Below are positions 13,816 to 56,331 of a stretch of DNA of 64,000 nucleotides, piece by piece. The position numbers and the translations under genes are program-made. The notes beneath the pieces were generated by a model. That model was not told the DNA's origin, made no database searches, and was given only the letters and a program-made list of their open reading frames with translations. Origin of the DNA: Trypanosoma brucei. Lineage: Eukaryota. The DNA is taken from positions 1,856,001 to 1,920,000 of the forward strand of contig CH464491.1 of NCBI GenBank assembly GCA_000002445.1, in the 5' to 3' direction. Position 1 is the first letter of the stretch, and each line of letters starts with the position of its first letter.

Positions 13816-16800
13816 TTAATCCCTGTTAAGGTCAACGTTTTGTGTCGGAACTATACCCGCTTGTGCGTTACCCTCTTTGCGAAATGCAATCGCCCTCATT
13901 GCAAGCAGGTAGTCTTTCTCGCCGGACGAAATTGTTTTATTGAAGCCACGGTCATTATCCAAAATCCCTTGGAATGTTGAGCAAGCCTTGGGAACAACAA
14001 CAAGTCCACACTCCCGCCCTACAGCAACGAGAAAATCAACCGGAACGACGTTGACTTTTTTGAAATGACCCTTCTGCACCGAAAGCAGAAAGTGATTTCC
14101 CACCCTTGGTAAGAAATCTGCGGCCCACTCAATCGCAAAAACACCGTTACCAAAACTGCCTTTAGCAAATAATGGCTCAACATCGAAGAAGCAACCTATA
14201 AATACCCCACCGGGAATTAGGGCATTGGCCACGCTTTCGATAAGCCGCATCGCGGTGTACTCTGTTCCGAATGCATGATGAAATCCGGCAAACGCAGTTA
14301 TGACATGAAATTGTCTTGGGTGGATCTTCGTCAAGTGGTGACTCCAAAAGTTTGCAGAGAACACATCGGCACAGATAACGTCATAAAATGACATCTCTGT
14401 CATTTCATGGCGTAATGAAGAAATGAGCTCGCTCGCAGCATCCACGACACTCGACTTCAAATCGAAACCAATGTACCGAGCCGTTTTGTTCCTTATCCAT
14501 TTTCTTAAAAGGTATCCCCCACAGCAAATCTCAAGCACGTCATTCGTGGCCACCTTAGGAGTTATTATATCTATGAGTAAAGATGCGCACCGGGTTAAGA
14601 CATGGGTTGCAAACGATGCATTTTCCGGTGGGGGGGCCAAATATCCAATTTCTGCTTTCAAGTTAGTAGCAGAAAATGTGCCCCAACAGTTATCACAATA
14701 GAAGTGTTGGTTTAGGGTGTCATTCTTTCCCATAACACAGAACCGACCACAGTATAGACAATCCCCATGGCCTGTTTCGCTCCAGCACTTTTTGCACCAA
14801 TACGCCATGTGCTTCACGTTCATTCTTCCTACGTCACTTACGTTATGACACCTTCCACACCTGTATTTGGCAGCGTCAAGTAGCCACAGCATTTCCTTAT
14901 GCGTCAATCCAGGCACATGAACAAGTCTCTCAACGATGTCGAACGTATCTGGCTGGTACCCCATATCCGGACCACGGCCCCGAAGCAACTCCCACCAATG
15001 AGAACCATCGTCACTTCGCTTTAGGACGCATTCGATGACGGAGCCGCTCCTAAGCTCGGGGGCAGAGTCCCATATATAGTCAACATATTCATTGTTATAA
15101 GACATGGTATTCTTACCGCTGTCAGCCACAAGAAGCCACGCCCGTTTTACATCTCCACTCTCTGGATGGACATTTTCAACGTCACCAACAATAAACACCG
15201 CAGTTGTCGAGGATGTAGGGATCCAGCTATAAACCGAGGTATCTTTCTCTTTGCAGTTGGTAACGTGAGGCACAAAAACTAAGCCCAATGTTGGATGTCC
15301 TGCCGGTGGGTTTCTAAGTAAGCGCTCAGCTTGAGTTGAAACGGTATATATTGTCCGGACAATGGCAACCCGATTGGGGCTCGTGTGTGGACGGCTTGCG
15401 TAATTGTCAAGCAAACACTTTTCCACGTAAAACCACCGCTCTGGAAAGGGTAGCTCTCGCACGTCAGCTTCTTCAAAAGATAGAATATCCTCCACTATTA
15501 TGACATAATCCAGGTAACTTCGGTAGGAAGAAGCAACGACAGCAGAAAAAACGCTATTTTTCGCCCTTCCACCCAGCCCCCGAAAGTAATCTGGAAGTGC
15601 AGAAATGCTTCCCGTCTTAACGTCTACACAAAAAACATCCCCCTCGCTATTTGTAATCAGTAGTACATTTGCTCCCACGGTCTTACTCCGTACATAGTAC
15701 GGGTATTTGGAAAATTCTTCTGCTGCCGCAGCAAACGTCATTCTGTTGAGTGGGACTGGGACACAATTAACAGGAAGCCACTTCTCCGCTATTTTGTGAG
15801 CGTATTCGTATTGAGCAAACGTAATGGACCTTCTGAAGTGCTGGGGAACATAACCAAAGCAAGTGCTCGACATGTCGAATGACCGACCCGCAGCCAGCAC
15901 ATAGTTTAGCGTCGCATTCAAAAACCAACCGTCTGCTTCCGTGCACAGCGTCACACCAAATTCCTTTCGCAACGTTGTATCGCTCACACAAACACCCGAA
16001 ACGCTGGCTGCCGTATCATCACACAGATCCCCAACGAATGCCAGCATATCAAACACTGGACAAACTAACGTCCCTACGTGGTGAGAATAATCGATATTAA
16101 TGTTAACATGAACAACAGTTGGCTTCGGCCAGTCATTTTGTTCCTTCAGAAGTGACAAAAAATGTGTTTCGTATTCTTTTAAACTGGATAATGTACGTGA
16201 AACATCACATGGATACAAAGAAACAAAAAATGACCGATCAGGCTTGCCATCTGATAGCAACTTCTTGCTTGCATCATCCCCTATCGAGACAACCACGGTG
16301 AGAGGAACTTGCATGCTACAAGCAAATGATGCTACGGCATTTACCTCTGTAATACGGAGGGGATGAAAGTTAATTCCCAATAGAGCCGTCTGGAAAAAGT
16401 GAACATCTTCCGGTTGCGGGATGATTATCGACACAAAAAAGTAGTGGCGGTGGGTGCCAGCGTATCGCCTACTTGATGATGTTCCACAGAAAGATCCCAC
16501 GTAACCCACCGCCAAAACCCGAGGATCCTCTCGAAGTGTCCAGAAGTAGTCGTCCCAAGCAGCTTTCAGCTGAGGTGCAACCTCAGCACCGCACTCCTTA
16601 GGAACCTCAACACGAACCAGAAAACCAGGTGCCGCGCTAATGGCACATATGTCGGACACAGTGCCTGTAAGTGACAAAATGGAGCGGGATAGTAGAATTC
16701 CAGTTGGTGCCTCGGTGCCAGAACAATATCCAGCATTCTTCACATTACTGAAGAATGTGGTAGTAAATACCTGTAAAGCATCATCGCCTGGGCCTCCGTG

Positions 16801-16989
16801 GGAATAACTACAGAGTAACCTCTTCGTTAAGAGTTGAAATAATCCACTTGTTTCTTCGGATTCTTTCGTAGCATCATATTTTCTGATGGTTGGTAACATT
16901 AAAAGATACCGGTAAAAATTGCTCCTGTGCGGTGCTCCGTGATCTCCAGCGGCTTGGGGGACGAAGGACCTGGCATTTGCGTTCAACAT
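13816..16989 (-). CDS. CGM1: Bifunctional mRNA/SL-RNA capping enzyme: N-terminal guanylyltransferase-like domain plus C-terminal cap guanine-N7 methyltransferase (TbCgm1-like)
   Basis: 1057 aa. C-terminal cap-N7 MTase motifs: ICCGGYLLRKW, YIGFDLKSSVVDAASE, FHVITAFAGFHHAFGTEY, LIPGGVFIGCFFD, FGNGVFAIEW. N-terminal nucleotidyltransferase-like motifs: YYVRSKTVGANVLLIT (motif I-like) and SHWWELLRGRGPD (motif VI-like). The two domains are separated by a Cys-rich CxxC cluster. Size and architecture match the kinetoplastid-specific Cgm1 described for T. brucei. Confidence 0.8.
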   Translation of the reverse strand: MLNANARSFVPQAAGDHGAPHRSNFYRYLLMLPTIRKYDATKESEETSGLFQLLTKRLLCSYSHGGPGDDALQVFTTTFFSNVKNAGYCSGTEAPTGILLSRSILSLTGTVSDICAISAAPGFLVRVEVPKECGAEVAPQLKAAWDDYFWTLREDPRVLAVGYVGSFCGTSSSRRYAGTHRHYFFVSIIIPQPEDVHFFQTALLGINFHPLRITEVNAVASFACSMQVPLTVVVSIGDDASKKLLSDGKPDRSFFVSLYPCDVSRTLSSLKEYETHFLSLLKEQNDWPKPTVVHVNINIDYSHHVGTLVCPVFDMLAFVGDLCDDTAASVSGVCVSDTTLRKEFGVTLCTEADGWFLNATLNYVLAAGRSFDMSSTCFGYVPQHFRRSITFAQYEYAHKIAEKWLPVNCVPVPLNRMTFAAAAEEFSKYPYYVRSKTVGANVLLITNSEGDVFCVDVKTGSISALPDYFRGLGGRAKNSVFSAVVASSYRSYLDYVIIVEDILSFEEADVRELPFPERWFYVEKCLLDNYASRPHTSPNRVAIVRTIYTVSTQAERLLRNPPAGHPTLGLVFVPHVTNCKEKDTSVYSWIPTSSTTAVFIVGDVENVHPESGDVKRAWLLVADSGKNTMSYNNEYVDYIWDSAPELRSGSVIECVLKRSDDGSHWWELLRGRGPDMGYQPDTFDIVERLVHVPGLTHKEMLWLLDAAKYRCGRCHNVSDVGRMNVKHMAYWCKKCWSETGHGDCLYCGRFCVMGKNDTLNQHFYCDNCWGTFSATNLKAEIGYLAPPPENASFATHVLTRCASLLIDIITPKVATNDVLEICCGGYLLRKWIRNKTARYIGFDLKSSVVDAASELISSLRHEMTEMSFYDVICADVFSANFWSHHLTKIHPRQFHVITAFAGFHHAFGTEYTAMRLIESVANALIPGGVFIGCFFDVEPLFAKGSFGNGVFAIEWAADFLPRVGNHFLLSVQKGHFKKVNVVPVDFLVAVGRECGLVVVPKACSTFQGILDNDRGFNKTISSGEKDYLLAMRAIAFRKEGNAQAGIVPTQNVDLNRD

Positions 16990-17749
16990 TGCTACCGCTT
17001 ACTTACTTTCCCCTTTTAAACTTATCCACTCCGATCTAACCTTTGATTTTTTTTAAAAAAACCGACACCGTTATCGTTTTCCCCTTACTAACAGTATGAA
17101 GGTAAAGAAGGTGGACTGCATAATTTTGAAATAACGTGGCGACGAAAACGAACAAGCTCCCAATATATAATGGATATTCATCACAAGGAGGAGAAATTGT
17201 ACCCAGATGTAAGCAGCGGTCAATGTCCACGAGCGCAAGGGCAGCAACTACCTGTCCTTTAAATAATGAGGATCTGCGTGTACTCTTCGGCGGCAAGGGA
17301 GCAAGCACAGCTCCGACACACCAAGGGAATAGCTCGCATAACCGGTTACGTGCGCTAGTGTACTGCCTAAGGTAGACAGAGTTTTCCACACAGAAAAAAA
17401 GAGTATGGGCTTAGAATAACCTCACCGTGGGGTGACTTAGGGAAATCAGGAGGCACCACAAACACCGACAAAACTTCGCGTATTTACTCGGCCGCAAGGC
17501 GCACAAGACCACCACTAGCCCAACCGTTGAAGTGGATCAAGCCAACTCAAGAGTCTTGAATAGCGAAACAAGCAACGTAGCCATAACACGGGCAGTTTCC
17601 TTCGCCGCCGCTCCGGGAGAAGGGTATAAAGTAGCCGCAGTAAAAACCCGACACTGGCAAAACCAGAGACGCATCCCCGGCTTCTGCAAACCTTAAAGGG
17701 AGACCGAAGGGTGCGGGGCGTAGAAATCCAGCACATACATATACGACCA

Positions 17750-18000
17750 CCCACCTGTACCCCGACTCACAAGCGGTCCAAAACATCACAACGTCGCGCT
17801 CTGCTGTCCTGAACACTCGGTAACACACACTTCCCCGCCAACGAATACCCACCCCGCGCGAGTCAACCACCGCACCAACTCACACAATGAAGCAGCAGCA
17901 ACACGCTTCCAGGTCAGCCAATCGGTGGGCACGCGGACCCTCAGAACACACCCATCACCCCAAATACGCTGGCCACACGGAGCTGCACCACTCGGACGCT
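17750..18000 (-). promoter_or_regulatory. GT-rich (sense-strand) tract: candidate Pol II transcription start region for the downstream minus-strand gene array
   Basis: The plus strand is strongly CA/C-rich here (cacacacttccccgccaacgaatacccaccccgcgcgagtcaaccaccgcaccaactcacaca...), so the transcribed minus strand is GT-rich. GT-rich elements have been described at T. brucei Pol II start regions. The tract lies between the tRNA and the first gene of the downstream array. Confidence 0.3.
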
Positions 18001-18461
18001 CACTCAGCACCGAAACGGCCGCACCAAGAATGCGTAGATTTTTGTTTGTTACTGCGCGTGTTTTGGAAGTGCGCACAGGGGGTCCGTCTCTCGAGTCAGT
18101 ATCTCAGTAAAGAATCGGCTGTACGGGCTTCGGGGAGTTGAAACCACCGCCCTTCCACCTCAACACAAGCCTGGTGGTGAAGCAAGCTGCTGGCGCTCGA
18201 CTTTCCCCTTCTATCGCAGGTTAGTGAACTCAGGCAGCGGCACCAAGGATGGAAAAGAAGCAACATCTTCCCCCTTTCTTCAAAATGTATTCCTTCAAGG
18301 ATCGACAACTTGCCACGCTGCAGATCCTGCGGGTCAAACGGACGGTGAATAAAGGAAAGTGGGATATACTTCCCTAACGGACTTTGTTGCCTGGCCCCTT
18401 TTTCGCCCATCTTTTTCGATTTTTTTTTTTGGAAGCAAAAACGGATGCAAAAAAAAAAAAA

Positions 18462-18530
18462 CAGGTTGGAACTCGCGGGCACCGAGACATTCGAAAAGGG
18501 GAAAGATGTTTTGCCAGCAGATACCGAAAA
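18462..18530 (-). ncRNA. Candidate divergent Pol III small RNA gene upstream of tRNA-Gly (identity unknown)
   Basis: On the minus strand a T13 run (A13 on plus, 18449-18461) lies about 150 nt upstream of the tRNA 5' end. A second oligo-T run on the plus strand (T11, 18420-18430) faces it. Trypanosomatid snRNA/7SL genes characteristically sit about 95-100 bp upstream of, and divergent from, a tRNA whose A/B boxes act as their promoter. The predicted transcript, GGCAAAACAUCUUUCCCCUUUUCGAAUGUCUCGGUGCCCGCGAGUUCCAACCUG-Un, contains a hairpin ACAU...AUGU. No known snRNA could be matched from memory. Confidence 0.2.
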
Positions 18531-18611
18531 TATCCTCAGAGGTCGAAATCCGCTACTGAGCACTTTCCTCCAAATATAATGACGAGAATTATCTTCGCTG
18601 CTGCGCCTGCC

Positions 18612-18682
18612 GCGCCGTTGGTCTAGTGGCATGATGGTACCCTCCCAAGGTATTGACCCGGGTTCGATTCCCGGACGGCGCA
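18612..18682 (+). tRNA. tRNA-Gly (anticodon CCC)
   Basis: 71-nt cloverleaf folded by hand. Acceptor stem GCGCCGT/ACGGCGC. Anticodon stem GTACC/GGTAT with loop CTCCCAA (anticodon CCC). T arm CCGGG-TTCGATT-CCCGG. The B box GGTTCGATTCC and the A-box-like TGGTCTAGTGG are present. It is antisense to the surrounding minus-strand gene arrays. Confidence 0.9.
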
Positions 18683-18684
18683 TC

Positions 18685-18689
18685 TTTTT
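18685..18689 (+). terminator. Pol III oligo-T terminator of tRNA-Gly
   Basis: A TTTTT run begins 3 nt after the discriminator base. Confidence 0.6.
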
Positions 18690-20151
18690 CGCGTCACTCC
18701 TCTTTTCGAGCCTTCAACCGGATTGTGCGGCTTTTCTATCCACACCTCGAAAATGTATGGCGAACGCTGTCGCCACCATCTTCCCAAACGTATGAACGGG
18801 AAAAACAACCAAACAACCAACATATGAGAGTCGCTTCCTCCACTCCACAATTACGGCCCCTTCCGCACATTTCGCTTGCGGAATCGCCAAACAGCACACC
18901 ACCAGCGTCTATCCCAGACCTTTCCAGCCCATCGTTTTCTCATTCAAGGTATATCGGCATTGTTCCCATACTCTGCCTGTGGCACCCTGCTTGGTGCCAT
19001 GTTCCTTAGCGTACTCGCAAGCCGCTATCTCTATCTTGTAGCAACCACCAGTGCATTCAGCTTTTCGGGCAGTTTAAAATTTTCAATTGCCATCTTCCGC
19101 CGAGCCACGCGTTCCGCGCGACGAATACTCTTTCTTGGGCACAGGAGGGTGTGGAAAAAGAGAGTTCCAATGGGGAGGCAGTGAATTCCGAAGAATGCAA
19201 AGCCAATGGCATGGTTGTGTAGGCGCGAACACCGTCTTTATCGATGGAGATGGCATTGCAACCATTTCCCCCTTACGTGAAGATGGAATAGCGGGGAGGC
19301 CCCTACAGACACCATATTAACGCCAAGGTGGCGCCTATAGCCTCGTCATTGTGCTTGGCTCTTGCGCTCTTTCAAGGGTGAGGCCAAGCGCCGGGGTGCT
19401 TCCTAAATATTTGCATTTGAAGCGTGCAGGTGCTCAACAGCCACTAGGCAAGTGGAAAGAAACGATGGCATCGGCTCTCGGGAGAGAGTGCGGTTGCCTT
19501 TCAGCCATGCTGAGCTTATGGGCCTGCTTCTTCAGGTGCCTGTCCGCTGCTGTTATTATTTAGGGCGAAAGTCAGGCGGAGCTTAGGTTCGATTCTCAGT
19601 GGATAGCAATGGAATGCCTCTTGCCCCTTTCAGAAGAAAGACCGAGCTCTGGCAAGGCACCTGCTGCGATGCCGGGGCTGTTTTTTGCACTTTTTGTGAA
19701 GCGTATTTGGTCCTGAAGAAGGAAAGACACGTTAGCAGCAAGACCAAAAAATATCAGAACAACCAAAGGCCTTCAAAAGAAGGGGACGTGTCCGCACCCT
19801 TTTTTTTAAAAAAAAGAGAAAAAGGATAAATGCCTCAAAGCCTGCAACAAATTGGAGGGTGCAAAAGAACATCTGCTAAATCAATGCTTGGCCGGGGGGG
19901 GGGTAGAAGGGCACGCCCGTCCAAGCCTATTTTCAAAAACCAGTTGCCGTTGCGAAACCAACGCTGGTTACCATGTTCCACGCAAGGCCCGATGACAACG
20001 GGCGCGGATGCAAAGACAGTGGGCTATGATATCTATTCAAAAGCCCAAAGCTGCGCCGCTGACTCCGTTGTGAAACGGCGCTTGGAATGGGAAACATGAC
20101 TCGCTAACGAATGGGTAGGCGACAAGAAAGTCGCCACACTGTAAACCATAC

Positions 20152-20191
20152 CCGGCGCCGAGCGTGAAAAAATATAAAAGTGAGGCGCCGG
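20152..20191. repeat. Perfect 8-bp GC inverted repeat (hairpin) with A-rich 24-nt loop
   Basis: ccggcgcc-gagcgtgaaaaaatataaaagtga-ggcgccgg. Confidence 0.7.
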
Positions 20192-22140
20192 TCTGGAGTT
20201 CGAAACCGAACCGAAGTAGTAACCGCCGTTAAATAAAGCTCGAAGCAAGCATCCGTAGGGACAGCTATTGAGTCCGTTTGTGCCGTCATAGACGTCTACT
20301 ATTCGCATGGAATAGCACCGATTGGGCAACTCGGCGGCAAATATGCGTCTAGGAAGTTCATCCACGGTTTTTAATATTACCGTAGGATGACGGATGGGAT
20401 GGGCAACGCAATTTCCCCCTCAATCCGCATGGAATCAATGAAAGCAACTGGCGAAGGAAATGAGTTGGTGCCATCTTTCTGGATTCAAGAAATGCCGGAT
20501 ATGGAAGCAGATGCTGAAAATTGTGCGAATTGCAGGAAAAAGGGAACAAAAATTTGCAAAGCTAAAACAAGTGCTGAAGGAGGTGGCCGCAGAACAATGG
20601 AGGAGGTAAGGGCTAGAAACAGAATTCAAAAAATAAATCAAGGGACCGGAACCTGATAAACTCGCTGCTTGTTCTGAGGTTGTTGAGCACGCCCATTGTA
20701 GTGACTAATGGTCTGAGGTTATCAAAGAATCAGCGGGCGATTGAGCTCTGGGATACATGGAAGGGAAACCGAGAGAATACGATACGAATGGCATCACGGG
20801 CGTTATTGCTTGGAGCAGCGGGGAGGTTTTAGGTCCATACCATTTGCCATGGTAGAGTTCAAACTAGTGTTTGGTGAATTCCCCACCGGCATCGCTTCTG
20901 GTTGGAAAAAAAAACAAACAAACATAAGGAGGGATTGTAGAAACTTGGCAACAACACGGGCACTCGCAGCAGTGATCTATAACTTGTGCTGGAAACAAAA
21001 CCTGATACCGCAGCTGCTGCGCAGAAGAGCATCATTTCTTTTTCATTGAATCCAAACAAACCAAAAAGAAAGGGGTGATGCCCCTCCGTTTTCCAACCGC
21101 AGCAGGTAAGGATCCGCAGACTGAAGGATAGAGAAATTTCAAGCATGTCGAGATTACCCTCTTCAGACAAGGCCAGCGAGCTTCAGACGTGGACTCTCAG
21201 CATTAGACGTCAGAGCGTGACCACCTGCTTTAATAAACAGAGGGGGGGGGGAGGAACGAGAGAAAGCGGTTACTGTGTTTATTGATTATCCCCGATGGGT
21301 TGGCACAGTGTAACGTGACTGCGTCATCGCGGCACTAAATCGCTACAAAGTGGTTCCGTTCCTGACGGAATGGAAGAGACGGTTCCTCCCCAATTCTGAG
21401 GTCAACATGGGGGCGAACAACACGCAGTCAAAAACTAGGCCATTTTAACATGCGGCGGTGCTGCGGGGATCTGCCCTGCGGTGAGCGCCGTCTCTCGTCG
21501 CGATGAAATCCCTACGCAAACGGTTGAATAAAGCTTACGAAACTAGTCATGATTTCCTTTCGAACGGCTTCATCACCTTTGGCACACACACAGATTTTAA
21601 AAAAGAAATGTCGAGGACACCCCTGAGCAGGGAGTTGGCCGTCACCCCCAGTGGTCTAGAGAGCACCATGCTCAGTTGCCTGAGAAAACGGAATATGCAT
21701 ACTTTGGGGCCAGGCATCTTTGCACCCTCAACTTCCACATAAATAACAAAACAAATAATGAAAAGGAAAGGCCCCAAATTACCGGGGATTCCATGCAGCT
21801 GGAAGGGGGGATGTGACCCCACACGCCCAAACTGCGGGAGATAAAATCGACAAAGTTGACCCCGCGTTTTAGGCATCCCTATTGGAGCCCCTCGTGGGCG
21901 GAGAAAAATTCGACCACTCGCTTCTAGCGCAAAAGGTTGATGCGCCACAACAATATTTGTACGAATGGCTCCGATCCCCCACGCCTCACACGTCTACTCT
22001 ATGAAATTACCTTTGTTTTGTCGGAATTCATCATTGCGGCGCGGCCGAACGCACGACGCAACAGCCGTTGTTGGACAAGTTGCACCGGGTGAGTGGCTAC
22101 GAAACGCGCAAACGACCAAACAACCCTCTTGGGCCTTTTT

Positions 22141-22186
22141 GTTATTATTATTACTATTATTATTATTATTATTACTATTTTTTTGG
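22141..22186. repeat. (TTA/TAT)n trinucleotide microsatellite followed by T/G homopolymers
   Basis: gttattattattactattattattattattattactatttttttgggggg. Confidence 0.9.
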
Positions 22187-23459
22187 GGGGTCGACCTCAA
22201 CGTGTCACTGGGGACGGAACAGAATTTTGGGACGTTTTAGGATCAAACATCCGCCCATGCGGCACCCATTCCATAATTTCAAGACACACTCGGTTTTGTT
22301 TGAGAGCTCTTGAGTGTGTGGATAAAAAATTTCCCACTGCCGTTTTCCCGAACTCGTCACAGCTGAGGCCTTAGAGATCTTTACGATCAGTCGCTACACC
22401 TCTGCTATCGAGTGCGTTCGGTGTGGTTGCCGGCTCCGCCTTGAGAGTCCACATTCCACGTCCTCGACCAATCAAAAAGTATTGGTGACTCCTTGTGGAA
22501 CCGGTGCATCTTTTTTTTTTTCTTCAGCAGAAGTAAAAGCTTTTGTCCACCATACAACCTGTTGCCCCAATGAAACATTTACCAGATCATCGCCCAATTT
22601 CTTTAATGACCCGCGGGGCCGCAGGTGGCGTAAGCAAGCCGTCGCTTTTCTGAACGTTTAAACTCTCTGTTTCGACCGGAAAGTTGTAACTCATTGGTGG
22701 ATTGACCAACGACCCACACGACGCATCAGCCGCTGGCGGTGATATATGTGTATATATATATATATATTTCCCTCATCCATAAAAAATCCACATGAAGGAT
22801 TGATGTAAAAAAAAAAGCAAAGCAAGGGATGACCTTTTCCTTGCATGCGGCTTCCTTAGGGGAATTCACCTTTACAACCCCTCTTTGCCTATGCCTGGAG
22901 TGGCTAACTTGTCCTTCGTCAAAGTCCGTAGCCGCGCAGAATGTTATTTTTAGTACCAACGGTGCGGTTAACAGTGATGAAAGGTTTCCGCAAAACAGAT
23001 GTTGCTTAAGCTGCTGGCGCTAGGGGAAATAAAGTTTAAGCACTTCCTCAGTTTCCACAGCGCTAACATCTCCGTCGCTTTTCTCATTTGCTCAGTGTGC
23101 CTATCATAGGTGGTGATGTACTGAAGCGGCACCAAGCAGTTTCACTACCCGCGCTTGCTTCAGACCGTAAGTACGGCGTCTAAAAAAAAAAAAAAGTAGC
23201 TATAGCAAATAGATCATCGGAAAGAATGGTCAACATAAGCGATATTTTTAGCAGCACTCTTGGTGGGTCAACAAATGGGACTCCGTCGCACCTTGTCGCG
23301 TTCCGCCCTCTCGCGTTGAACGGCTTTTAGCGTTCTGTTACCGTGCATGCTTATCCTTAAAAACCCTTTCTTTCCCTCAGACCTTCGGTAATTCATATCC
23401 TTACGTTAATCGCTTCCTCCTTCCCACCTCTTTCTTGCGTCTACCCTTCACGGGGCGCT

Positions 23460-25670
23460 TCATGTGGATTCACTTATCTGCACAACGAACTTTCCATAAA
23501 AATTTTGTGCGAGGTTGTTTCGAAGCCGCGGGTCCTGCTTCAGTTTCTCTCTCACTTTTTGCAGCAGCAAGTCATCCATCTGCAGGAGCTTTTGTAAGAC
23601 AATGGAGCTGCTCTGCTGCGTCGCCATTTGAGCCAGACCAGAAAGCACAAGTTCCACCACACGACCCTTGCCTTGCTGATCCAAACTGGCCATTAGCGTA
23701 CACAAGACATGCTGAGAGCCTTTTTCACATGCAAGCGAGACGAAGTTACGAAGCAACACATCGCAGATGTCGCGACTAGCGGGGATGGCCTTCTCCACTA
23801 CAAATCGTCCATTGTTGTGCCTAGTGAGTGTCACGACGTGTGCCCGGAGAGCGTTGCAAAGAGCCGTGTGCGTGGAGGCTCCCACATGGTCAAACAGACA
23901 CACCACAACATGGGAGGCGTAGACATGCTGGCACATACGTAGCAGCTCATCGGCCTTAATTAGGCTACGGGCAATTTTCTCCGCCCCAAACACTTTAATA
24001 TATTCTTGAACCATCACATTTCCAATGGAGTCATACATCAAGGCTGTGATGTCGCGTTCGATGGCACTGACGAGTAATTCTCCTACTTTAGACTCCTTAA
24101 CTTTGCATAGTGGTAGAAGCTTCCGCACGACCAAACTTCCTCGTGCATCACTTAACAAGTCCCCCACATTACTTCGTTTGACGAGCATCGCTGCAACCTC
24201 CTCAACTATAGCCTTGTTGGGTAGTGAATTGGCCGTCACGACGACGCAAACAACTACGTGCACAGAAATGGGATGGTCCACCAATGAGGATAACTGTGGG
24301 CCCAACAATTGCAGAAGGTGTTTAAAATTTGTCACCGCTTCCTTTTGTCCGGTGTGTGGGATAAGGGAAATAGCGGCCTGAACCACGAAGTTGGCATCAC
24401 CCGAGCTGCACATTTCCACAATGTTTGCTTCACAAGCCGATAACACAACATTAAATATCTCCGCAGCCTCGTTAGACGCGAGCTCTGTCAAGTCATGCGA
24501 TAGAATCTCCTGCAGAAACTTGCACCCTCGTTTGCTACCAAGCAGCGCCGCAACGTCAATGCCTCTTAGGACGGCGGCGCGGCTGGGACAATGAAGGATG
24601 AAAGTTCGCATGACTGGTGAAGCTACGGGGTCATTGGCAAGGTAAAGCAGCACATCCTGTTTCCCATCCTTATGCTCATTCGTCTTCCCCTGCTTCTTTT
24701 TCCCACCCCCGCCGCTGGTTTCGACGAGGCCCAAGGCATCCTTAAGCCAACTTACCGTTTCGGTTGGAAAGCGCTCGATGAGCCGACGGATGGTAACGGC
24801 TGTGTGGCGGTTGCGGAGTTTCACTTGTATCAAGTCTAGTGTCTCGGCCCCTTGGCACAAAACGTGCAAAGCCCTTCGCTGAATTTCGTGGTCTCCATTC
24901 AGCACCAACGAACTCATCACCTTGCATGCAACGTAATGCTCGTGGAGGGCCTCATTTTCTTCGAACAGACGCATCACAACATCAAGTACCATCAACTTCC
25001 TCTTTTCATCGCAGCTTGGAGCGCCCAACGCGTTCAACAGAGCACACACCACACGACCACCGCACTCGTCTTGTACAAGATCCTCAAGAAGTGTGAGCGG
25101 TTCTTCACCTTCATCCTCGTCTGTTGTAGCCGCCTGGCGATCAAGGGAAATAAACACATCTAAAATGTGGCTCAAGGTTTCTTCGTCGAGTTTCCCGTCA
25201 TCTCGCGGTCGCTTGCGCGATACTCCGGCCTGCTCTTCTCCCGCGCTGGTCTCGCAGAGTAAAAGTGAGCAAAGATCATCGCATGCAGCAGGAAGCCTAC
25301 AAGCCTGAGCGAATTGGGCAATGAGCAGCGCCTTCTTTTCCTCCGACACGGCAGCCCTTTGCGGTGTTGTGCGTTTCACAAGTCGTTCGGTGGTGGCGGC
25401 AAAGTCGCCCCGCCGCACGGCTTTCGCAACTATTGACTTTCGCTCGCGATTCTCACGTGTGTGACGCACCTGCCGCTGCTGTGAGCGCTGTAGCGTTCCC
25501 TTCTTGCCCATCGCGATTTCACCTTCGATATTTGTGCATGTTTGTATAGAGGGGATGGGGAGAAGTGCGTGAAGCCATGAAGGGGAAGTAAAGAAACAAT
25601 GCAACGAACGGATTGCAACCCAAAAGGGGAAAATAGACGGAGGTGGATCGGCGGGTTGGGGAATCACCAA
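23460..25670 (-). CDS. PUF/Pumilio-repeat RNA-binding protein (Nop9/Puf-A-like; probable true start MGKKGTLQ... near 25512)
   Basis: Repeated PUF-like helices with a characteristic aromatic/basic tripartite core: NNGRFVVEKAI, QHVYASHVVVCLFDHV, DSIGNVMVQEYIKVF, EKGSQHVLCTLMASL, QQSSSIVLQKLLQ, QNFYGKFVVQ, GDANFVVQAAISL. The first 53 listed residues start at a TTG and look like UTR. Confidence 0.65.
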   Translation of the reverse strand: MVIPQPADPPPSIFPFWVAIRSLHCFFTSPSWLHALLPIPSIQTCTNIEGEIAMGKKGTLQRSQQRQVRHTRENRERKSIVAKAVRRGDFAATTERLVKRTTPQRAAVSEEKKALLIAQFAQACRLPAACDDLCSLLLCETSAGEEQAGVSRKRPRDDGKLDEETLSHILDVFISLDRQAATTDEDEGEEPLTLLEDLVQDECGGRVVCALLNALGAPSCDEKRKLMVLDVVMRLFEENEALHEHYVACKVMSSLVLNGDHEIQRRALHVLCQGAETLDLIQVKLRNRHTAVTIRRLIERFPTETVSWLKDALGLVETSGGGGKKKQGKTNEHKDGKQDVLLYLANDPVASPVMRTFILHCPSRAAVLRGIDVAALLGSKRGCKFLQEILSHDLTELASNEAAEIFNVVLSACEANIVEMCSSGDANFVVQAAISLIPHTGQKEAVTNFKHLLQLLGPQLSSLVDHPISVHVVVCVVVTANSLPNKAIVEEVAAMLVKRSNVGDLLSDARGSLVVRKLLPLCKVKESKVGELLVSAIERDITALMYDSIGNVMVQEYIKVFGAEKIARSLIKADELLRMCQHVYASHVVVCLFDHVGASTHTALCNALRAHVVTLTRHNNGRFVVEKAIPASRDICDVLLRNFVSLACEKGSQHVLCTLMASLDQQGKGRVVELVLSGLAQMATQQSSSIVLQKLLQMDDLLLQKVREKLKQDPRLRNNLAQNFYGKFVVQISEST

Positions 25671-26059: not shown

Positions 26060-27787
26060 TCACACGAACCACCCCTTGCCACCCCGTATTCCCTTCACCT
26101 GGCCAAACCGTGGAACGCCGTACTCTGTAAGCGACTGGTATTTTACAGTCGCGTACAAACCTGTCAACGACCGTTTATTAGTACGCCCCGATGCCGGAGT
26201 TCCGCCACCCTTGCGGCCGCCAGTAACATCCAGCAGATGTCGCAAGAGAGCTTGCTGGTTCTCAGCATTCATTTTTGGCAGGGAAACATTGAATACACGT
26301 CCCGTGTCGCTAAGGCACTGAACCCCATAGAAGATGACAGTGTCGCTGTTGTTACCCTTCATTGCAGCCCTCCCCTGCGGGGTTCTCGGCGCCGAAACGC
26401 CAAGGCTTTCATGAAGTGAGGAGACGGGTATACGCAAAAAACTCCGCGACCGTGCGTCTGCTGTGGGGGGTTTGAGAAGGGGCCTCAAGATGGCGTACTC
26501 CTTGTCCGCAAACGGAAGGAGTTTTGCTGCAGTTGGACTGCGGCGGCCATTCGTTTTGGCTCGCCGAAGCACCTTCTCCACAATTTCCCTGTGATCAGCA
26601 GCTTCATCGCTCCCGGCTCCATTTTTATTTCCATCGGAAGTGTCGGTTTCAGTTGCACCCGGAGCGTCGCAGGTGACCACGCACTCGCCTTCGGAGTGCA
26701 CGCGAAGGAGCCGTGTGCCCCCCGTGACACGCGCTCCATTCCGCCTCGACTCATTCCTACTATGTAGAGCAAACAGGGAAGGTTTCAAGGAAGTAATCAA
26801 GGGATCCAGCAGGCCTTGAAGTACCTTCTTTTCCTTCTCCCTGATTTCATACACGTTTGATGCACTACGAACCACAGCACCCTCGTAGCCAGTTGAGAGG
26901 TATTTGTCAAGATACACAGTTCGGACCTCTTCAAGCGAGGTAATCAGTGTGTAAGGAACGAGCTTCACATACTTGCCGCCGATACCCTGGTAAGCAGGCA
27001 CAGGTTCGCGTACAGGCTCCGCACCACTGCATTCTTCCACTGCGCTAGACATCCGTTCAGGGAAAAGGGTTGAGGAAGCCCGTGCCCGCTCCAGAAGGCT
27101 GGCAAGAAAATGCAGTGCCTTAAGGCGTTGCGAGAAAACGGAGTGATTGGGAATAACACGAACCATTTCCAGGTCGGAGATGTGGTTGGCCTCCATGACC
27201 CCGCGCAAGATAGCCAACCGTTCCTTCTCTATCCGTGGGATTCCCCTACCACTCTTGTCGCCTCCGAGTTTCACCCTCTCGTTGGGTTGAAGCGAAACAA
27301 TATCAAATACACACATGATGGGGAGTGATGCCACATACCTGAGCACTTCATCTTCCGAAGAACAAGCGGACTTTGCGGACCGGAGACGGTGGACCAGAGC
27401 TGAGACCGCAAGGAACCCCGTCTGGGTAGCACCGCTGGACGCAGTGCGCGGGTTGTGTGAGCGGTGGATGTAAAGCTCACCATCGAGGACCAGTCGCGGG
27501 TCACCACTAAGCCACCGAAGAAGCCGCAGTTCTTCTTCAATCCACGTCACCCCATAAATGGGGCGACCAAAGCGCGAGAAGCACGTCGACTTTGTTGACT
27601 CGGCTTGGGGAGGCACGTACGATACAATCCGAACCCCATCATGCTTTGGTGAGACGAAATACGGAGGTCCTTGAGGGCTGCTACCAGACGGCGAGGCTGC
27701 AGTGGCCGCACGCTCGAATACATCAAAGGTTGATAATGCCATGGGCTCGAAGGGCAAACCACGCCGGGGTCTTACAAGACGGAACAT
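26060..27787 (-). CDS. ATP-dependent DNA ligase, small mitochondrial (kinetoplast LIG k-like) type
   Basis: Nucleotidyltransferase motifs: motif I SPKHDGVRIV (KxDGxR), motif III LVLDGELY, motif IV TGYEGAVVRS, motif V GKYVKLVPY. The N-terminus MFRLVRPRRGLPF looks like a mitochondrial presequence. Confidence 0.8.
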   Translation of the reverse strand: MFRLVRPRRGLPFEPMALSTFDVFERAATAASPSGSSPQGPPYFVSPKHDGVRIVSYVPPQAESTKSTCFSRFGRPIYGVTWIEEELRLLRWLSGDPRLVLDGELYIHRSHNPRTASSGATQTGFLAVSALVHRLRSAKSACSSEDEVLRYVASLPIMCVFDIVSLQPNERVKLGGDKSGRGIPRIEKERLAILRGVMEANHISDLEMVRVIPNHSVFSQRLKALHFLASLLERARASSTLFPERMSSAVEECSGAEPVREPVPAYQGIGGKYVKLVPYTLITSLEEVRTVYLDKYLSTGYEGAVVRSASNVYEIREKEKKVLQGLLDPLITSLKPSLFALHSRNESRRNGARVTGGTRLLRVHSEGECVVTCDAPGATETDTSDGNKNGAGSDEAADHREIVEKVLRRAKTNGRRSPTAAKLLPFADKEYAILRPLLKPPTADARSRSFLRIPVSSLHESLGVSAPRTPQGRAAMKGNNSDTVIFYGVQCLSDTGRVFNVSLPKMNAENQQALLRHLLDVTGGRKGGGTPASGRTNKRSLTGLYATVKYQSLTEYGVPRFGQVKGIRGGKGWFV

Positions 27788-51727: not shown

Positions 51728-52450
51728 CTATGTTCCAAGTGCCTTTTTTGCAACATCATTAAACTTATGGCAAACCCAACGGAGACCCCGGGGCTCCTCT
51801 ACATGCACCGCAACCTCAAGCGCTGCCAAATCCATGTGTTTGTTGGCCTCAACCAGTTCATTCACCTTTTGTTCCAAGGCGTCAATTCGCTGCAGTAGGC
51901 GTCTTTCCTTCGCCTCAGAGGCCTTTGCGCTCGAGGTAATTTCAGCATACAACACAAACGCAAGAATGAAATACACCAGCAACTCAATGAGGAGCTCAGC
52001 TCCTGCGGCTACAAGGTGTTCCTCCGACAAGGAAGCGGAGTAACCTTCCCTAAAAGTTTGCCACACCGTTCTCATGGGCCGCGATGAAAAGAAAATTCGA
52101 CCGCTACGACTCCTTCCACCTCTGCTCGAAGGTGTGGAACCAAGCAATGACCGCACTCGCGGCGCCACCGTGACCGCTCGGTCCTCTTTTGATTTTCCAA
52201 ATGTCGATGTGGAGCCTTCTCCGGTGGCACTGTCTTGCTTCGACGAGTTGACTGGACTTGGTTTGTGTTTTTCCTCCACATGCCACCTCGCCATGACAGA
52301 GGAAATGGCTGCAGACAAGTGTCCAAGTCGAAGGCAGACTGTTCGTGTGATACTCGCCCCGTGTTGGGCTTTTTTCACGGTACGACTAACCATCGGCTTA
52401 GACATCTGCCTGATGGCCAGCAGGGCGAAGCGGTAAACTGGTGCTGGCAT
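51728..52450 (-). CDS. OPA3-like (optic atrophy 3 family) protein
   Basis: N-terminus MPAPVYRFALLAIRQMSKPMVSRTVKKAQ resembles the OPA3 family N-terminal signature ([20 protein letters not shown]). A C-terminal TM helix LIELLVYFILAFVLYA is followed by coiled coil. Confidence 0.5.
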   Translation of the reverse strand: MPAPVYRFALLAIRQMSKPMVSRTVKKAQHGASITRTVCLRLGHLSAAISSVMARWHVEEKHKPSPVNSSKQDSATGEGSTSTFGKSKEDRAVTVAPRVRSLLGSTPSSRGGRSRSGRIFFSSRPMRTVWQTFREGYSASLSEEHLVAAGAELLIELLVYFILAFVLYAEITSSAKASEAKERRLLQRIDALEQKVNELVEANKHMDLAALEVAVHVEEPRGLRWVCHKFNDVAKKALGT

Positions 52451-54109
52451 TTTTTTTTTTTTTGAAGCAAGCCGGCCTCCAGATGATGGGACGATAGATA
52501 AACCTCAGATGTACTTGCACCTTCTCTCCTTCTTCTTGACTCCCGATACCTTCTTTATGTTATCGCAACACGCTACCGAGAGTATGTGGGTGCGTATAAC
52601 TGAGTGTATGCCTCACTCACTGTGTCTCTGCAAGAGTAAATTTGTACAGGGTATAATAAAAATATGATGATTGAAGACAGTTGGAGAAATAATAGAAGGA
52701 ATTAAATGATGACTTACCGACATGAAGGTGCGGCCGATGCGACCGACGCGGCTGTTACCACCAAATGCGAGGGCACAACAAATTCCTCGTGCATGGAGAG
52801 GGCAAGAAACGAAAGGGAAAAAGAACAGAGGGACATGAGTAAATAATAACAAAAATAATAAAAAAGGGGAAGAAACGAAAGAGCCAAAAAAAAAAAAAAA
52901 AAGAAACAACCACCGCAGTAAATAAAAATGAAAAAAGAAACGAGAAAAAGCACGTGGAAAGATTTGGTGGGTGTGCAGGTTTGCATGCGTGCACGTCCGT
53001 TTGTCTGAGAGGGAGAGGGGGAAAAAAAAAGAAAAAAAAGAAAAGAAGGAAAAACTGTAGAAAAACGAGAGAGACACGAAAAAGGGGCGAGCAAATGTAA
53101 CATACGGGTGGGATTACGGTACCCGCGATACTGCATTGGATCAATGGGTCGATGACGCGTGCATGTGCCTGTATATGCTTATGTATATATTTATATATAT
53201 ATATATATATGTGTGTGTGCGTGTGGGCGCGTGCCTTTGTGTTCGGAAGTAACATAAGGAGGGTGTGGTAAAAGAAAAAAAAATCGGCTATTCCAATCCA
53301 CATTCTTACATCGCCGTCTTGTAATAATAACCAACAGCTCCAGAAGAGAAAAGAAAGAAGAATTGAAATGCGCGCGAGTACGTGAAGAGAGGCCACACGT
53401 TCAACCACTTGCACAGGGAAGGTGTGAGTCCCATCATGCACTTATTTACCCTTTTCCTCAGTGGGGATATTGGAGAAGTATGCGGGAGCTGCAGTTGTTG
53501 TGACGAACTGCGAAATTCTGCCCAACCAAAATTCGCAAAGGCACGTGTGGACAAGAAACAGAAACAGAAAAAGCGTACCTCAATCCCCGATGTAGAAGAC
53601 ATCATTAGGCAAAACAAACAAACAAACAAGCAAACAAACACGTAGAGACACACATTCGTTGAGAAAGAGACGTGTCGCAATGAACAAGAGCGAACAAACA
53701 AACAAAAGAAGGACCCTCACAGTAGATAATCTCCTGACACGACACCTGCACACTTTCACCTGTACGCAAGTACAAAAAAGAAAGAAACAGCATTGAAAAA
53801 AGAAAAAAAAAGGGAAAGTCAGGATTAAAGCAACGAAACGGCACCGCGCGCCTAATCCACAAAATACCCTTCCATTTGTTCGCGTTGGCAATGTATGTAT
53901 TCCCCTTTTACCTTTTCTTTCTTTTCTTTTTTCTAAATATTTGCTGTTCCTCCGACTTTCAGAGACCCATTTTTTTTTTTGAAAGCAAATATGACTGTAA
54001 TCCCACCCTGATATACCTTCTTATTACACTTCACTTCTATTTCCCCTTCCCCCAGAAACACTTTTGGATCGTCCCAATCAATCCCTCTATGTCTCGTTCA
54101 TTCTCCTTT

Positions 54110-54140
<31 letters not shown>

Positions 54141-54336
54141 ATTTTTAATTCGCTCCTACACATTACTTCCGCATCACGTCCCAGACAAACCATTCCCTTT
54201 TCACATCTTTCCATATTCTTCCTTTCCTTGATTCATCACTCAATGCAAATTTGTCACCGTTTAGAGTCCTCAGTCACTAATCATATGTAAAACCAACTAA
54301 TCGAGAGAGTGCATGCAGGTGCCAGCACACATATGT

Positions 54337-54367
<31 letters not shown>

Positions 54368-55219
54368 CTATATGGCCATAATATAGACAGCAGGAACAGT
54401 AATGTGGGAACAACCGCAGTAATTACTACAATATTTACCATTATAAGTTGATGGGTGTGTCCCAACTGCAACGAAAGTGAGGTGGGGGTCGGAAAATATA
54501 AGGAAGAAAAGAAAAGAAAAAAAAAGTGTCCTGTTTCTTTCCTCGTTACTTAGGCCATTCACTAACTTTTATTTCGGAGGAAGTTTGAGGCGAAAAATGC
54601 GCGTTTTGTCCCACTTTAGTCCTTCATTCCTTTTCCCTCCACCTCCCTTACGGAAGTGCGCAACGGCTCAATCAACAGTTCGCAAGTCCACTTTCACATG
54701 GTCATCACATAAACCCCGTGGGTTGATGTCGTGCACACCTCTCCCCCTTCACGCATGTCGACATACATTCACGAATATATGCATAAGTGCAAATGTAAGT
54801 AAATATACATTTAACTTCCTTTCTCATCTTTTCTTTACTTTCGTTCTGGCAACATTGCCTTCAGTCTTTTCGTAATACTCGTCCATTGGGTTCGCTTATT
54901 ACGCTTTGTTCCCCGTGCCTCGTCAGTTTTTTTTCCACATATATATATATATATGTATATATTTATATGGTCCTTCCTCTCCACCTTTATTTCCTTTCAA
55001 ACCTCTCTTTTTTTCATTTACTCCTCCCCTTCATGACCTCAAACCTTCAACCATTTGCTGCAGCTTTGCATTCCGGTGCGGATGAATTGTATACTTTTTT
55101 CTCTATTCCGCCCTTTCCTTTCCTTTCTTCTTACATTATTTACTCCTTTTTTTTTTCCTCTTGTCTCACCCATGCCTTTTCCCCTTTCTTTTAGCCGATC
55201 GGTCGATCTTTCTCTCTAA

Positions 55220-55250
<31 letters not shown>

Positions 55251-55399
55251 TAGATTCACTCACTCACATGTGTCATTTTCTTTCTGTTTTTGCTTTTGTT
55301 TTCCTCTTGGTGTATATAAACAAACATTTATATGTAGATGCAGATATATGTGTATATTTCTTTCTCTTTACGTACTTGCCTTAACCCACAAATTCAGAC

Positions 55400-55470
55400 A
55401 CACGCATACACACACACACACACAAAGACACGTAAAGACACAAACACACACACACACACACACACAAAGA
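55400..55470. repeat. (CA)n-rich microsatellite cluster in the 14-3-3 downstream region. Further (CA)n/(TA)n runs occur at about 53185-53220, 54117-54141, 54340-54365 and 55221-55242.
   Basis: cacgcatacacacacacacacacaaagacacgtaaagacacaaacacacacacacacacacacacaaag. Confidence 0.85.
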
Positions 55471-55572
55471 CATACACGCACGTCTTCTTTCCATCACGGT
55501 GCCGTTAGCCAACCGAGACCAGAAGGCAAGAAAGAAAGAAAGAAAGAAAAAATAGATGGAAATGAAGAAAAC

Positions 55573-56331
55573 TCACTCCAATTCCTCCATCGCAGTTCCG
55601 TCATCCCGTCCTTCCGGATGTGCGTCTTCTGTCCATAAGGCGAGGTTGTCACGCAACAGTTGCATGATGAGTGCCGCTTCTTTGTGTTGTTCCTCATCCA
55701 ACACATCCGGATCGCTCAGCGCCTCCTCAAAGGCCTCGCGTGCCAATTGGCAACCGCGGTCAGGACTCTTCAGGATTTCGTAATAGAAAACGGAGAAGTT
55801 TAATGCGAGTCCGAGGCGAATAGGGCTCGTCGGTTTCAATGAAGCGTTGTATTGCATTGCCTGCGTGTAAGCCTCCAGCGCCTTGTCCTTCTGTTCCTCT
55901 GTATTGGTTTCAATTTCGGCATAGTAACGGTGATAGTCGCCCTTCATCTTGAGGTAATACACTTTCGTCTCATCCGTCTCAGCATTAGGCAGCAGATGCT
56001 TCTCGATAAGTTCCAAAATGTCGATGCAAATGTCACTTAATTCCTTTTCGATTTGGCGCTTGAAGGCCTTAATGAGTGTAACATTCTTTTCTTTCTTCAG
56101 ATCCTCCTTCTGCTCCAGTGCGCTGATGCTTCTCCAACAGGCACGACGGGCTCCAATGACGTTTTTATACGCGACGGAGAGAAGATTGCGCTCCTCCGAC
56201 GACAGGACGGGGTTCAGTTTTACGACCCGTTTCATGCAAACGAGGATCTCGTCATACCGCTCACACTGTTCAGCGATCCGCGCCATGACTGTAAGCTGCT
56301 CGCGCTTTTCAGGTATTTGAAAGCCCGCCAT
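55573..56331 (-). CDS. 14-3-3 protein
   Basis: Full-length 14-3-3 signature blocks: [66 protein letters not shown], and an acidic C-terminus. The ORF track extends the N-terminus through an A-rich leader. The real start is taken as ATG 56331..56329 ([13 protein letters not shown]). Confidence 0.9.

Follow-up and report, generated by a model that had tools for sequence, protein, structure and literature searches.

TbCgm1 and TbG1-IP (hereafter G1-IP) of Trypanosoma brucei are alike in the order of a guanylyltransferase (GTase)-like domain followed by a cap methyltransferase (MTase)-like domain, in their length of ~1050 amino acids (aa) and in being confined to kinetoplastids. TbCgm1 (Tb927.7.2080; 1050 aa, GTase at residues 1-567, MTase at residues 717-1050) is a nuclear protein for which both GTase and MTase activities have been demonstrated. 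G1-IP was described by Freire et al. 2014 (PMC4105752) as a 117.5-kDa protein (Tb117.5), which is encoded by Tb927.11.6720 and subsequently received its present name. Using Phyre2, a GTase domain at residues 409-701 (99.4% confidence), two zinc fingers at residues 711-780 and an m7G MTase at residues 774-1039 were assigned to it, and no domain was assigned to the N-terminal ~400 residues (PMC4105752). A PAM2 motif common to G1-IP, G5-IP and CE1 has been published as putative (PMC11754739). In the literature G1-IP is styled a putative capping enzyme or cap guanine-N7 methyltransferase; the idea of an active capping or recapping enzyme was raised at its discovery, and the authors of PMC4105752 termed its resemblance to TbCgm1 'superficial'. 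Here, the G1-IP gene was analysed in a stretch of 64,000 nucleotides of T. brucei DNA (assembly GCA_000002445.1, contig CH464491.1, positions 1,856,001 to 1,920,000), which is referred to in full length as the window. Comparison with relatives favours, with appreciable room for doubt, a reading in which G1-IP, derived from a capping or recapping enzyme, today functions chiefly as an adaptor and not as a guanylyltransferase, its eIF4E-like and GTase modules serving as binding surfaces.

The open reading frame (ORF) in question starts with ATG, and its product has a calculated mass of 117,563 Da and is 100% identical to XP_828746.1 / EAN79634.1 / UniProt Q384Z7 of T. brucei brucei TREU927, which carries the database label 'hypothetical protein, conserved' and is encoded on a contig of 5.26 Mb. 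The first CxxC is located at residue 711, matching the start of the published zinc fingers, and the Pfam MTase match covers residues 804-999. Because sequence identity, mass, location on chromosome 11 and published domain coordinates all agree, the ORF is Tb927.11.6720 and its product does not differ from TbG1-IP, the step from accession to gene ID being taken from these matching properties. An earlier note on this DNA, made from the letters alone, had the placement and the length of the ORF right, and its recognition of a kinetoplastid relative of capping enzymes is upheld by the homology of the GTase-like and MTase-like domains. The order it proposed (GTase-like part, Cys-rich module, cap-MTase-like part) stands as well, except that the GTase-like part is central (~409-701) and not N-terminal, since ~400 structured residues precede it. 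What was noted then is already known: the GTase/zinc-finger/MTase layout was published in 2014 and the PAM2 motif in 2024. In the searchable literature no mention was found of a loss of catalytic residues or of an eIF4E-like N-terminal domain of G1-IP; the probable inactivity of the GTase, the altered MTase pocket, the eIF4E-fold N-terminal domain predicted by modelling and the 'complete' ancestor-like form described below appear to be unreported in the literature searched.

The earlier note had regarded the ORF as a bifunctional capping enzyme with the architecture of TbCgm1. The similar layout is real; the protein is neither TbCgm1 nor its ortholog, and bifunctional activity appears unlikely. 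An identity with TbCgm1, the nuclear capping enzyme of the spliced-leader RNA, would agree with the near size (1057 versus 1050 aa) and the like domain order. It is refuted by the published gene data, according to which TbCgm1 is a different gene on a different chromosome and of different length, and by a motif search of the window. The GTase motifs of TbCgm1, taken from a review, are KADGTR (motif I), FVVDAELM (motif III), LIGCFDVFRYVI, DGFIF (motif IV), WKWP (motif V) and WSIERLRNDK (motif VI), and a string search of the ORF and of all frames of the window detected none of the six. Moreover, the literature keeps the two proteins explicitly apart, and G1-IP differs from TbCgm1 in its cytoplasmic location and in having a PAM2 motif, a predicted eIF4E-like domain and a zinc module. 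The identity can practically be dismissed. A protein of Cgm1 architecture (P0048) served as contrast; it carries the motifs KSDGLR, LLDGEY, DGLVF, KWKWP, VRTDK, FNNWVK, CCGKGGD and MFAMHY, and its alignment with G1-IP is restricted to the MTase region (28.7% identity, E = 1.3e-14).

Further orthologs and distant relatives were obtained by a homolog search over 1.84 billion representative proteins, named sources being T. grayi, Strigomonas culicis, T. theileri, T. melophagium, Porcisia hertigi and Papus ankaliazontas. No additional orthologs came from a second, word-indexed search with alignment. Two proteins seemingly without zinc module and MTase (P0022 and P0024) come from contigs of ~2.7 kb; their gene models are probably truncated, and no conclusion was drawn from them.

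In covalent nucleotidyltransferases, GMP becomes attached to the motif I lysine as a Lys-GMP adduct, and nucleotide binding is the task of motifs III, IV and V. Judged from its sequence, the GTase-like domain of G1-IP is a true homolog of the capping GTases from which the catalytic set has been lost. Its homology is seen best with three relatives, P0040, P0064 and P0106, which are the nearest ones with an intact motif I: alignment of the family profiles with hhalign gave a probability of 99.3% over the full length and of 99.0% (E = 4.7e-18) for the GTase/OB region. PF01331 matches these KxDG-bearing relatives with scores above or near its threshold. A profile of residues 395-705 is colinear with the GTase of the human/mouse capping enzyme (Mce1), with a weak score (E = 0.055, hmmsearch), and PF01331 reaches 13.3 bits in the whole protein (E = 0.073) and 17.5 bits in the domain alone, below the cut-off of 29.6. 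The human/mouse alignment sets the register of the motifs, with KADG corresponding to [K/R]xVG, DGLIF to LGLVF and KWKP to SWIP, and the three relatives have KxDG, LDGDLV and DGLV opposite K/RxVG, FSAVV and LGLV of the G1-IP family.

Motif I of the T. brucei protein reads K436-T437-V438-G439 instead of KxDG, as had been seen in the earlier note. Across ~19 relatives the column of the would-be nucleophile contains K/R/Q/N/T/S, with a residue other than Lys in most of them, so that the lysine is not conserved. In the same set the motif I Asp column contains V/I/A/E/Q and never Asp, the motif IV Asp column is nearly always hydrophobic, both motif V lysines are absent, and invariance of the motif columns is limited to structural Gly and Trp. 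The acidic residues of the motif III DGE are absent from G1-IP, which has FSAVV at the corresponding position. The nucleotidyltransferase fold is thus kept and the guanylyltransferase residues of motifs I, III, IV and V are lost, which largely removes the basis of the earlier assignment of this domain as an enzyme. Since the motif I lysine is not conserved, the residues of motifs III, IV and V are missing and the roles of these motifs are known, the domain is probably catalytically dead and would form no covalent Lys-GMP intermediate in most species. The m3G-cap-binding domain of snurportin-1 (PF21974) provides a precedent of a dead GTase nucleotidyltransferase fold that is reused for cap binding; this family matches the Papus homolog weakly (E 3.6e-4) and was not matched in the G1-IP-type sequences.

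These observations bear on the possibility that GTase and guanine-N7 MTase activities both reside in G1-IP, which would then be a bifunctional enzyme for capping or recapping in the cytoplasm; to this possibility very little weight is given here. Both folds are homologous to the respective enzyme classes, Lys436 is kept in T. brucei and the protein associates with a cap-binding complex. The replacement of the lysine in most relatives and the loss of the motif I Asp, the motif III DGE, the motif IV Asp and both motif V lysines speak against it, and cytoplasmic recapping has already been credited to TbCe1 and TbCmt1.

The homology of the C-terminal domain to cap guanine-N7 MTases is secure at the level of sequence comparison. 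PF03291 matches residues 804-999 with 49.2 bits (E = 5e-13) and passes its cut-off of 26.6, and the family profile matches human RNMT (E = 1.8e-21) and Ecm1 (E = 4.8e-13). The domain had been called canonical in the earlier note, and this part of the claim is not supported because near-invariant cap-MTase positions are replaced in G1-IP-type sequences. For this comparison a diverse set of 29 canonical cap MTases was aligned with 18 members of the family and a fragment of RNMT, with positions given in RNMT numbering. N176, N177, W178, K180, K208, D211, R239, Q284, F285, Y289, F354 and E370 are near-invariant in the 29 canonical enzymes; of these, N176, K180, K208, R239, F285, Y289, F354 and E370 are kept in 25-29 of the 29 (F or Y being counted at F354). 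All 12 positions are replaced or deleted in 13/13 G1-IP-type sequences. K208, the lysine of the GCGKGG loop, is deleted, which leaves the Gly-rich loop one residue shorter. D203, G207, D227, D261, H288 and F291 are retained in the same 13 sequences. From the structures of Ecm1 and RNMT, we take D203, G207, D227 and D261 to line the S-adenosylmethionine (AdoMet) site and most of the lost positions to line the GpppN pocket. G1-IP thus shares fold, family and these four residues with RNMT, Abd1, Ecm1 and TbCmt1, and differs from them at the 12 near-invariant positions. The replacement residues are themselves conserved within the family (e.g. PPPPNA-F...TR and CCGG), and the pattern indicates a domain which is under selection and has no canonical cap-guanine pocket. 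The MTase-like domain probably still binds AdoMet and probably is not a guanine-N7 cap methyltransferase; the replacement of all near-invariant positions assigned to the cap pocket also counts against the active bifunctional enzyme considered above.

The retained AdoMet-site positions, the strong conservation of the replaced pocket residues in the family (PPPPNA-F, TR, CCGG) and the match to PF03291 above threshold would equally suit an MTase that is active on a new substrate, for example a base next to the cap, some other site in RNA or a protein; the eIF4E-like, zinc and dead GTase modules would then serve to place this substrate. According to reviews, no enzymes have yet been assigned to the m6,6A and m3U base methylations of cap 4, which leaves candidate reactions for such an enzyme. 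On the other side, the GCGKGG loop has lost its conserved lysine and is shortened, and the base methylations of cap 4 concern the spliced-leader RNA cap and nucleoplasmic enzymes according to the reviews, whereas G1-IP is cytoplasmic. This explanation is the main rival of the adaptor reading and is considered unlikely, with roughly one chance in its favour for several against.

Between the two homologous domains the earlier note had pointed out a cluster of eight Cys in CxxC pairs, and this observation was confirmed: four pairs start at residues 711, 732, 744 and 765 (span 711-768), and all eight Cys are invariant across the family, together with two Trp and several Gly. A ninth Cys (C751) is not conserved. 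When the protein was shuffled, four CxxC within 58 residues were obtained in 3/20,000 shuffles. The spacing of 17/8/17 between the pairs is kept in nearly all G1-IP-type members and varies slightly in the relatives with P-loop and GTase, in which the module is present without an MTase. The two halves of the module, each of the form CxxC-x17-[FY][YW]CxxCW, look like a tandem duplication. No curated zinc-finger family reached its threshold (DZR_2, PHF5, CEBP_ZZ and LIM all stay below the Pfam cut-offs), and the best match in the PDB was a LIM domain with E 0.013, so that the resemblance to LIM, double-zinc-ribbon and ZZ fingers is weak and sub-threshold. A treble clef or zinc ribbon, proposed in the earlier note, is a candidate assignment.

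The N-terminal part begins with a short PAM2-type peptide. MLNANARSFVPQ matches the PAM2 (PF07145) consensus LNxNAxEFxP and lies in a region with a predicted local distance difference test (pLDDT) score < 50. Nearly all full-length relatives, distant ones included, have LNxNA[KR]xFVP at the extreme N-terminus. The Pfam PAM2 model matches relatives weakly and, at E up to 1, does not match the protein of T. brucei. One ortholog from a Logan assembly (P0004, 1200 aa) has an N-terminal extension of 146 aa before a conserved MLNVHAKSFVP start. Since almost every other full-length member begins with the motif, this extension is probably an over-extended ORF call.

For residues ~25-236 a fold like that of eIF4E, a curved antiparallel sheet backed by three helices, is predicted. 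The elements predicted between residues 26 and 236 follow each other as b1-b2-a1-b3-b4-a2-b5-b6-a3-b7-b8, which is the element order of eIF4E, and the domain boundaries were set on the basis of this agreement. An earlier AlphaFold2 model built from 5 sequences was discarded (pLDDT 44.8). Sequence searches gave little: Pfam IF4E (PF01652) matched none of 15 family N-termini, T. brucei included, at E up to 10, alignment with human eIF4E by hhalign had a probability of ~0.1%, and neither hhalign nor Pfam nor BLASTP was significant for the T. brucei protein. In the Papus homolog, IF4E is the best Pfam match of the equivalent region, sub-threshold at E = 0.053 and colinear over profile positions 39-148 of 158; a non-significant BLASTP alignment of this homolog with human eIF4E is colinear through W130, G151 and W166 and has a gap at W102/E103. 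When mapped by topology, the loops expected to hold the cap-stacking Trp residues of eIF4E (W56, W102) show no conserved aromatic residue. With the eIF4E family (EIF4E1-6 of trypanosomatids and 4EHP) the N-terminal domain of G1-IP shares 1-10% sequence identity, and, unlike the members of this family, it is fused to capping-enzyme-like domains.

In TbCe1 and the relatives combining PAM2, kinase and GTase, the corresponding N-terminal part is a P-loop kinase/NTPase domain, and the eIF4E-like assignment could be a modelling artefact of such a domain in diverged form, spanning the N-terminal 400 residues. TbCe1 and these relatives share with G1-IP the N-terminal PAM2, the homology of the GTase/OB region (hhalign 99%) and the tandem zinc module. 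No P-loop is detectable in G1-IP, and the explanation is rated as improbable.

The relatives suggest a course of descent. P0040, P0064 and P0106 (989-1121 aa) have PAM2, a Walker A P-loop, a GTase with VRRKxDG and the tandem zinc module, and have no MTase. They are probably equivalent to the published 142-kDa NTPase/GTase/zinc-finger protein, which has been linked to stumpy-form induction. Within kinetoplastids, the combination of PAM2 with a GTase or GTase-like domain seems to characterise the family. The homolog from Papus ankaliazontas (P0023, 1177 aa), a member of the Prokinetoplastina, a basal kinetoplastid group, is the 'complete' ancestor-like form. Its PAM2-like start is followed by the IF4E-like stretch, by an ADK/AAA_18 kinase domain at residues 244-399 with the Walker A GAPGTGKT, by a GTase (PF01331, 30.2 bits, above threshold) with KVEG as motif I and DGLLF as motif IV, by a capping-enzyme OB domain that remains sub-threshold (17.0 bits versus a cut-off of 26.5), by the same tandem zinc module and by an MTase (PF03291, 102.6 bits) that retains R208, D211, R239, Q284, F285 and E370. 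P0040, P0064, P0106 and the Papus homolog keep Walker A, LDGDLV, DGLV and a motif I of the form KxDG, for which Papus has KVEG, and all of these are lost in G1-IP. Because the Papus homolog keeps a Walker A kinase together with near-canonical GTase and MTase, the comparison suggests that G1-IP descends from a recapping-type enzyme with kinase, GTase and MTase domains. A more far-reaching version would be that this pseudo-capping enzyme is the remnant of an ancestral cytoplasmic 'recapping machine' composed of eIF4E-like, RNA kinase, GTase and MTase parts, which is nearly intact in the prokinetoplastid Papus. The trypanosomatid form would have given up kinase, GTase and guanine-N7 MTase chemistry and survive as a seventh, cryptic protein of eIF4E fold, docked on EIF4G1 and tethering PABP2, and its eIF4E-like and dead GTase modules might read an RNA 5' end in a non-canonical manner. 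This version is put forward tentatively, as a conjecture that falls somewhat short of an even chance. Apart from these proteins, the search yielded a protein of 1064 aa (P0028) with an XRN 5'-3' exonuclease domain at the N-terminus (PF03159, E 5e-22) and a PF03291 MTase at the C-terminus (E 1e-74), an unusual fusion of a decay-enzyme and a capping-enzyme domain.

Published interactions set the frame for a function. G1-IP copurifies with EIF4E5, EIF4G1 and the RNA-binding protein G1-IP2, and EIF4G1 is bound directly in yeast two-hybrid assays; 14-3-3 II may take turns with G1-IP on the EIF4E5/EIF4G1 complex (PMC4105752). In pull-downs of PABP2, G1-IP was among the most specific proteins (PMC6075789). 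The protein is cytoplasmic (PMC4105752, PMC6075789) and was found in starvation stress granules (sources for interactions and localisation: PMC4105752, PMC6075789, PMC4652759). Taking these associations and localisations together with the sequence features described above (PAM2 peptide, zinc module, predicted eIF4E fold, dead GTase and reshaped MTase pocket), we propose a bridge in which G1-IP would connect the 5' complex (cap-EIF4E5-EIF4G1) to PABP2 bound to poly(A). A link from cap-bound EIF4E5-EIF4G1 to PABP2 through G1-IP has also been suggested in PMC11754739. The contact to PABP2 would be made by the PAM2 motif, and the EIF4E5 complex would thereby gain a closed-loop link, as EIF4E3 and EIF4E4 do with PAM2 motifs of their own. 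The dead GTase and eIF4E-like modules may serve as binding surfaces for EIF4G1 or the RNA 5' end, and the MTase-like domain, which probably binds AdoMet, would act, if on any substrate, on one other than cap guanine N7.

Several points weigh against the adaptor reading. The contact between PAM2 and PABP2 is putative (PMC11754739). The eIF4E fold is predicted by one AlphaFold model built from 15 sequences, and the Trp positions were placed by topology. Lys436 is still present in T. brucei. The many invariant residues of the MTase-like domain fit an active enzyme with altered substrate equally well as a binding module. G1-IP was scored essential in a genome-wide RNA interference screen (cited in PMC4105752), which could reflect catalysis. 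No enzymology on G1-IP was found in the literature searched, the inactivity being deduced from sequence.

The positions of the features within the window are collected in Table 1.

Table 1. Features of the G1-IP gene and its product with their positions in the window
Feature	Residues	Window position	Strand	Evidence
Complete ORF, Tb927.11.6720	1057 aa	13816..16989	-	100% identity, mass, published domain coordinates
PAM2-type peptide MLNANARSFVPQ, predicted ligand of the PABP MLLE domain	1-12	16954..16989	-	Consensus, conservation
Predicted eIF4E-fold domain, boundaries inferred from secondary-structure order	~25-236	16282..16917	-	AlphaFold model
Second alpha/beta region, possible degenerate P-loop-kinase remnant (tentative)	~237-405	15775..16281	-	
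GTase-like nucleotidyltransferase and OB domain	~409-701	14887..15765	-	Phyre2 (published), hhalign, hmmsearch, motif columns
Motif I KTVG	436-439	15673-15684	-	Sole KxxG candidate in the protein
Motif IV LGLVF		15274-15288	-	Register from human/mouse capping-enzyme alignment
Motif V SWIP		15217-15228	-	Register from human/mouse capping-enzyme alignment
Predicted tandem C4 zinc module, CxxC-x17-CxxCW-x7-CxxC-x17-CxxCW	709-770	14680..14865	-	Cys conservation
Cap-MTase-homologous domain	~780-1045	13855..14652	-	PF03291, profile vs RNMT, position comparison
MTase motif I VLEICCGG-YLLRKW		14497-14538	-	Part of the MTase-like domain
MTase motif FAGFHHAF		14269-14292	-	Part of the MTase-like domain

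The 19 ORFs in the window with a length of at least 250 aa share the minus strand without exception (19/19), so the window fits a single trypanosomatid polycistronic unit. The neighbours of the G1-IP gene are unrelated housekeeping genes, and the window includes genes for Pus10, an amino-acid permease, a protein kinase, a TPR protein, a NOP9-like PUF protein, an LRR protein, an RCC1-repeat protein and BOP1. Directly upstream of the G1-IP gene an ORF-poor gap of ~6.4 kb without long ORFs is located (16990-23460), within which a single tRNA-Gly(CCC) gene lies at 18612-18682 on the plus strand, opposite to all protein-coding ORFs; a mechanically called ORF overlapping it (18096-18683, minus strand) is almost certainly spurious. 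At ~9 kb from the G1-IP gene, an ORF of 575 aa (26060-27787, minus strand) has weak matches to the nucleotidyltransferase domain of ATP-dependent DNA ligases (PF01068, E 6e-6) and to the ligase OB family PF14743 (E 1e-3), by which it is classified as another member of the covalent nucleotidyltransferase superfamily. The dense array of minus-strand genes is interrupted at ~52000-58800 by an AT-rich region (GC content 0.33-0.44, GC skew down to -0.27 at 54-56 kb) with A-rich low-complexity repeats and short ORFs only.

Previous work lists G1-IP as a putative capping enzyme or cap methyltransferase located on an eIF4F-like complex, and this has prompted ideas about cytoplasmic capping. The sequence evidence recasts the protein as an adaptor or reader, which is relevant to the biology of translation in trypanosomes, and the Papus homolog offers an evolutionary path that would lead to it from a complete kinase-GTase-MTase enzyme.

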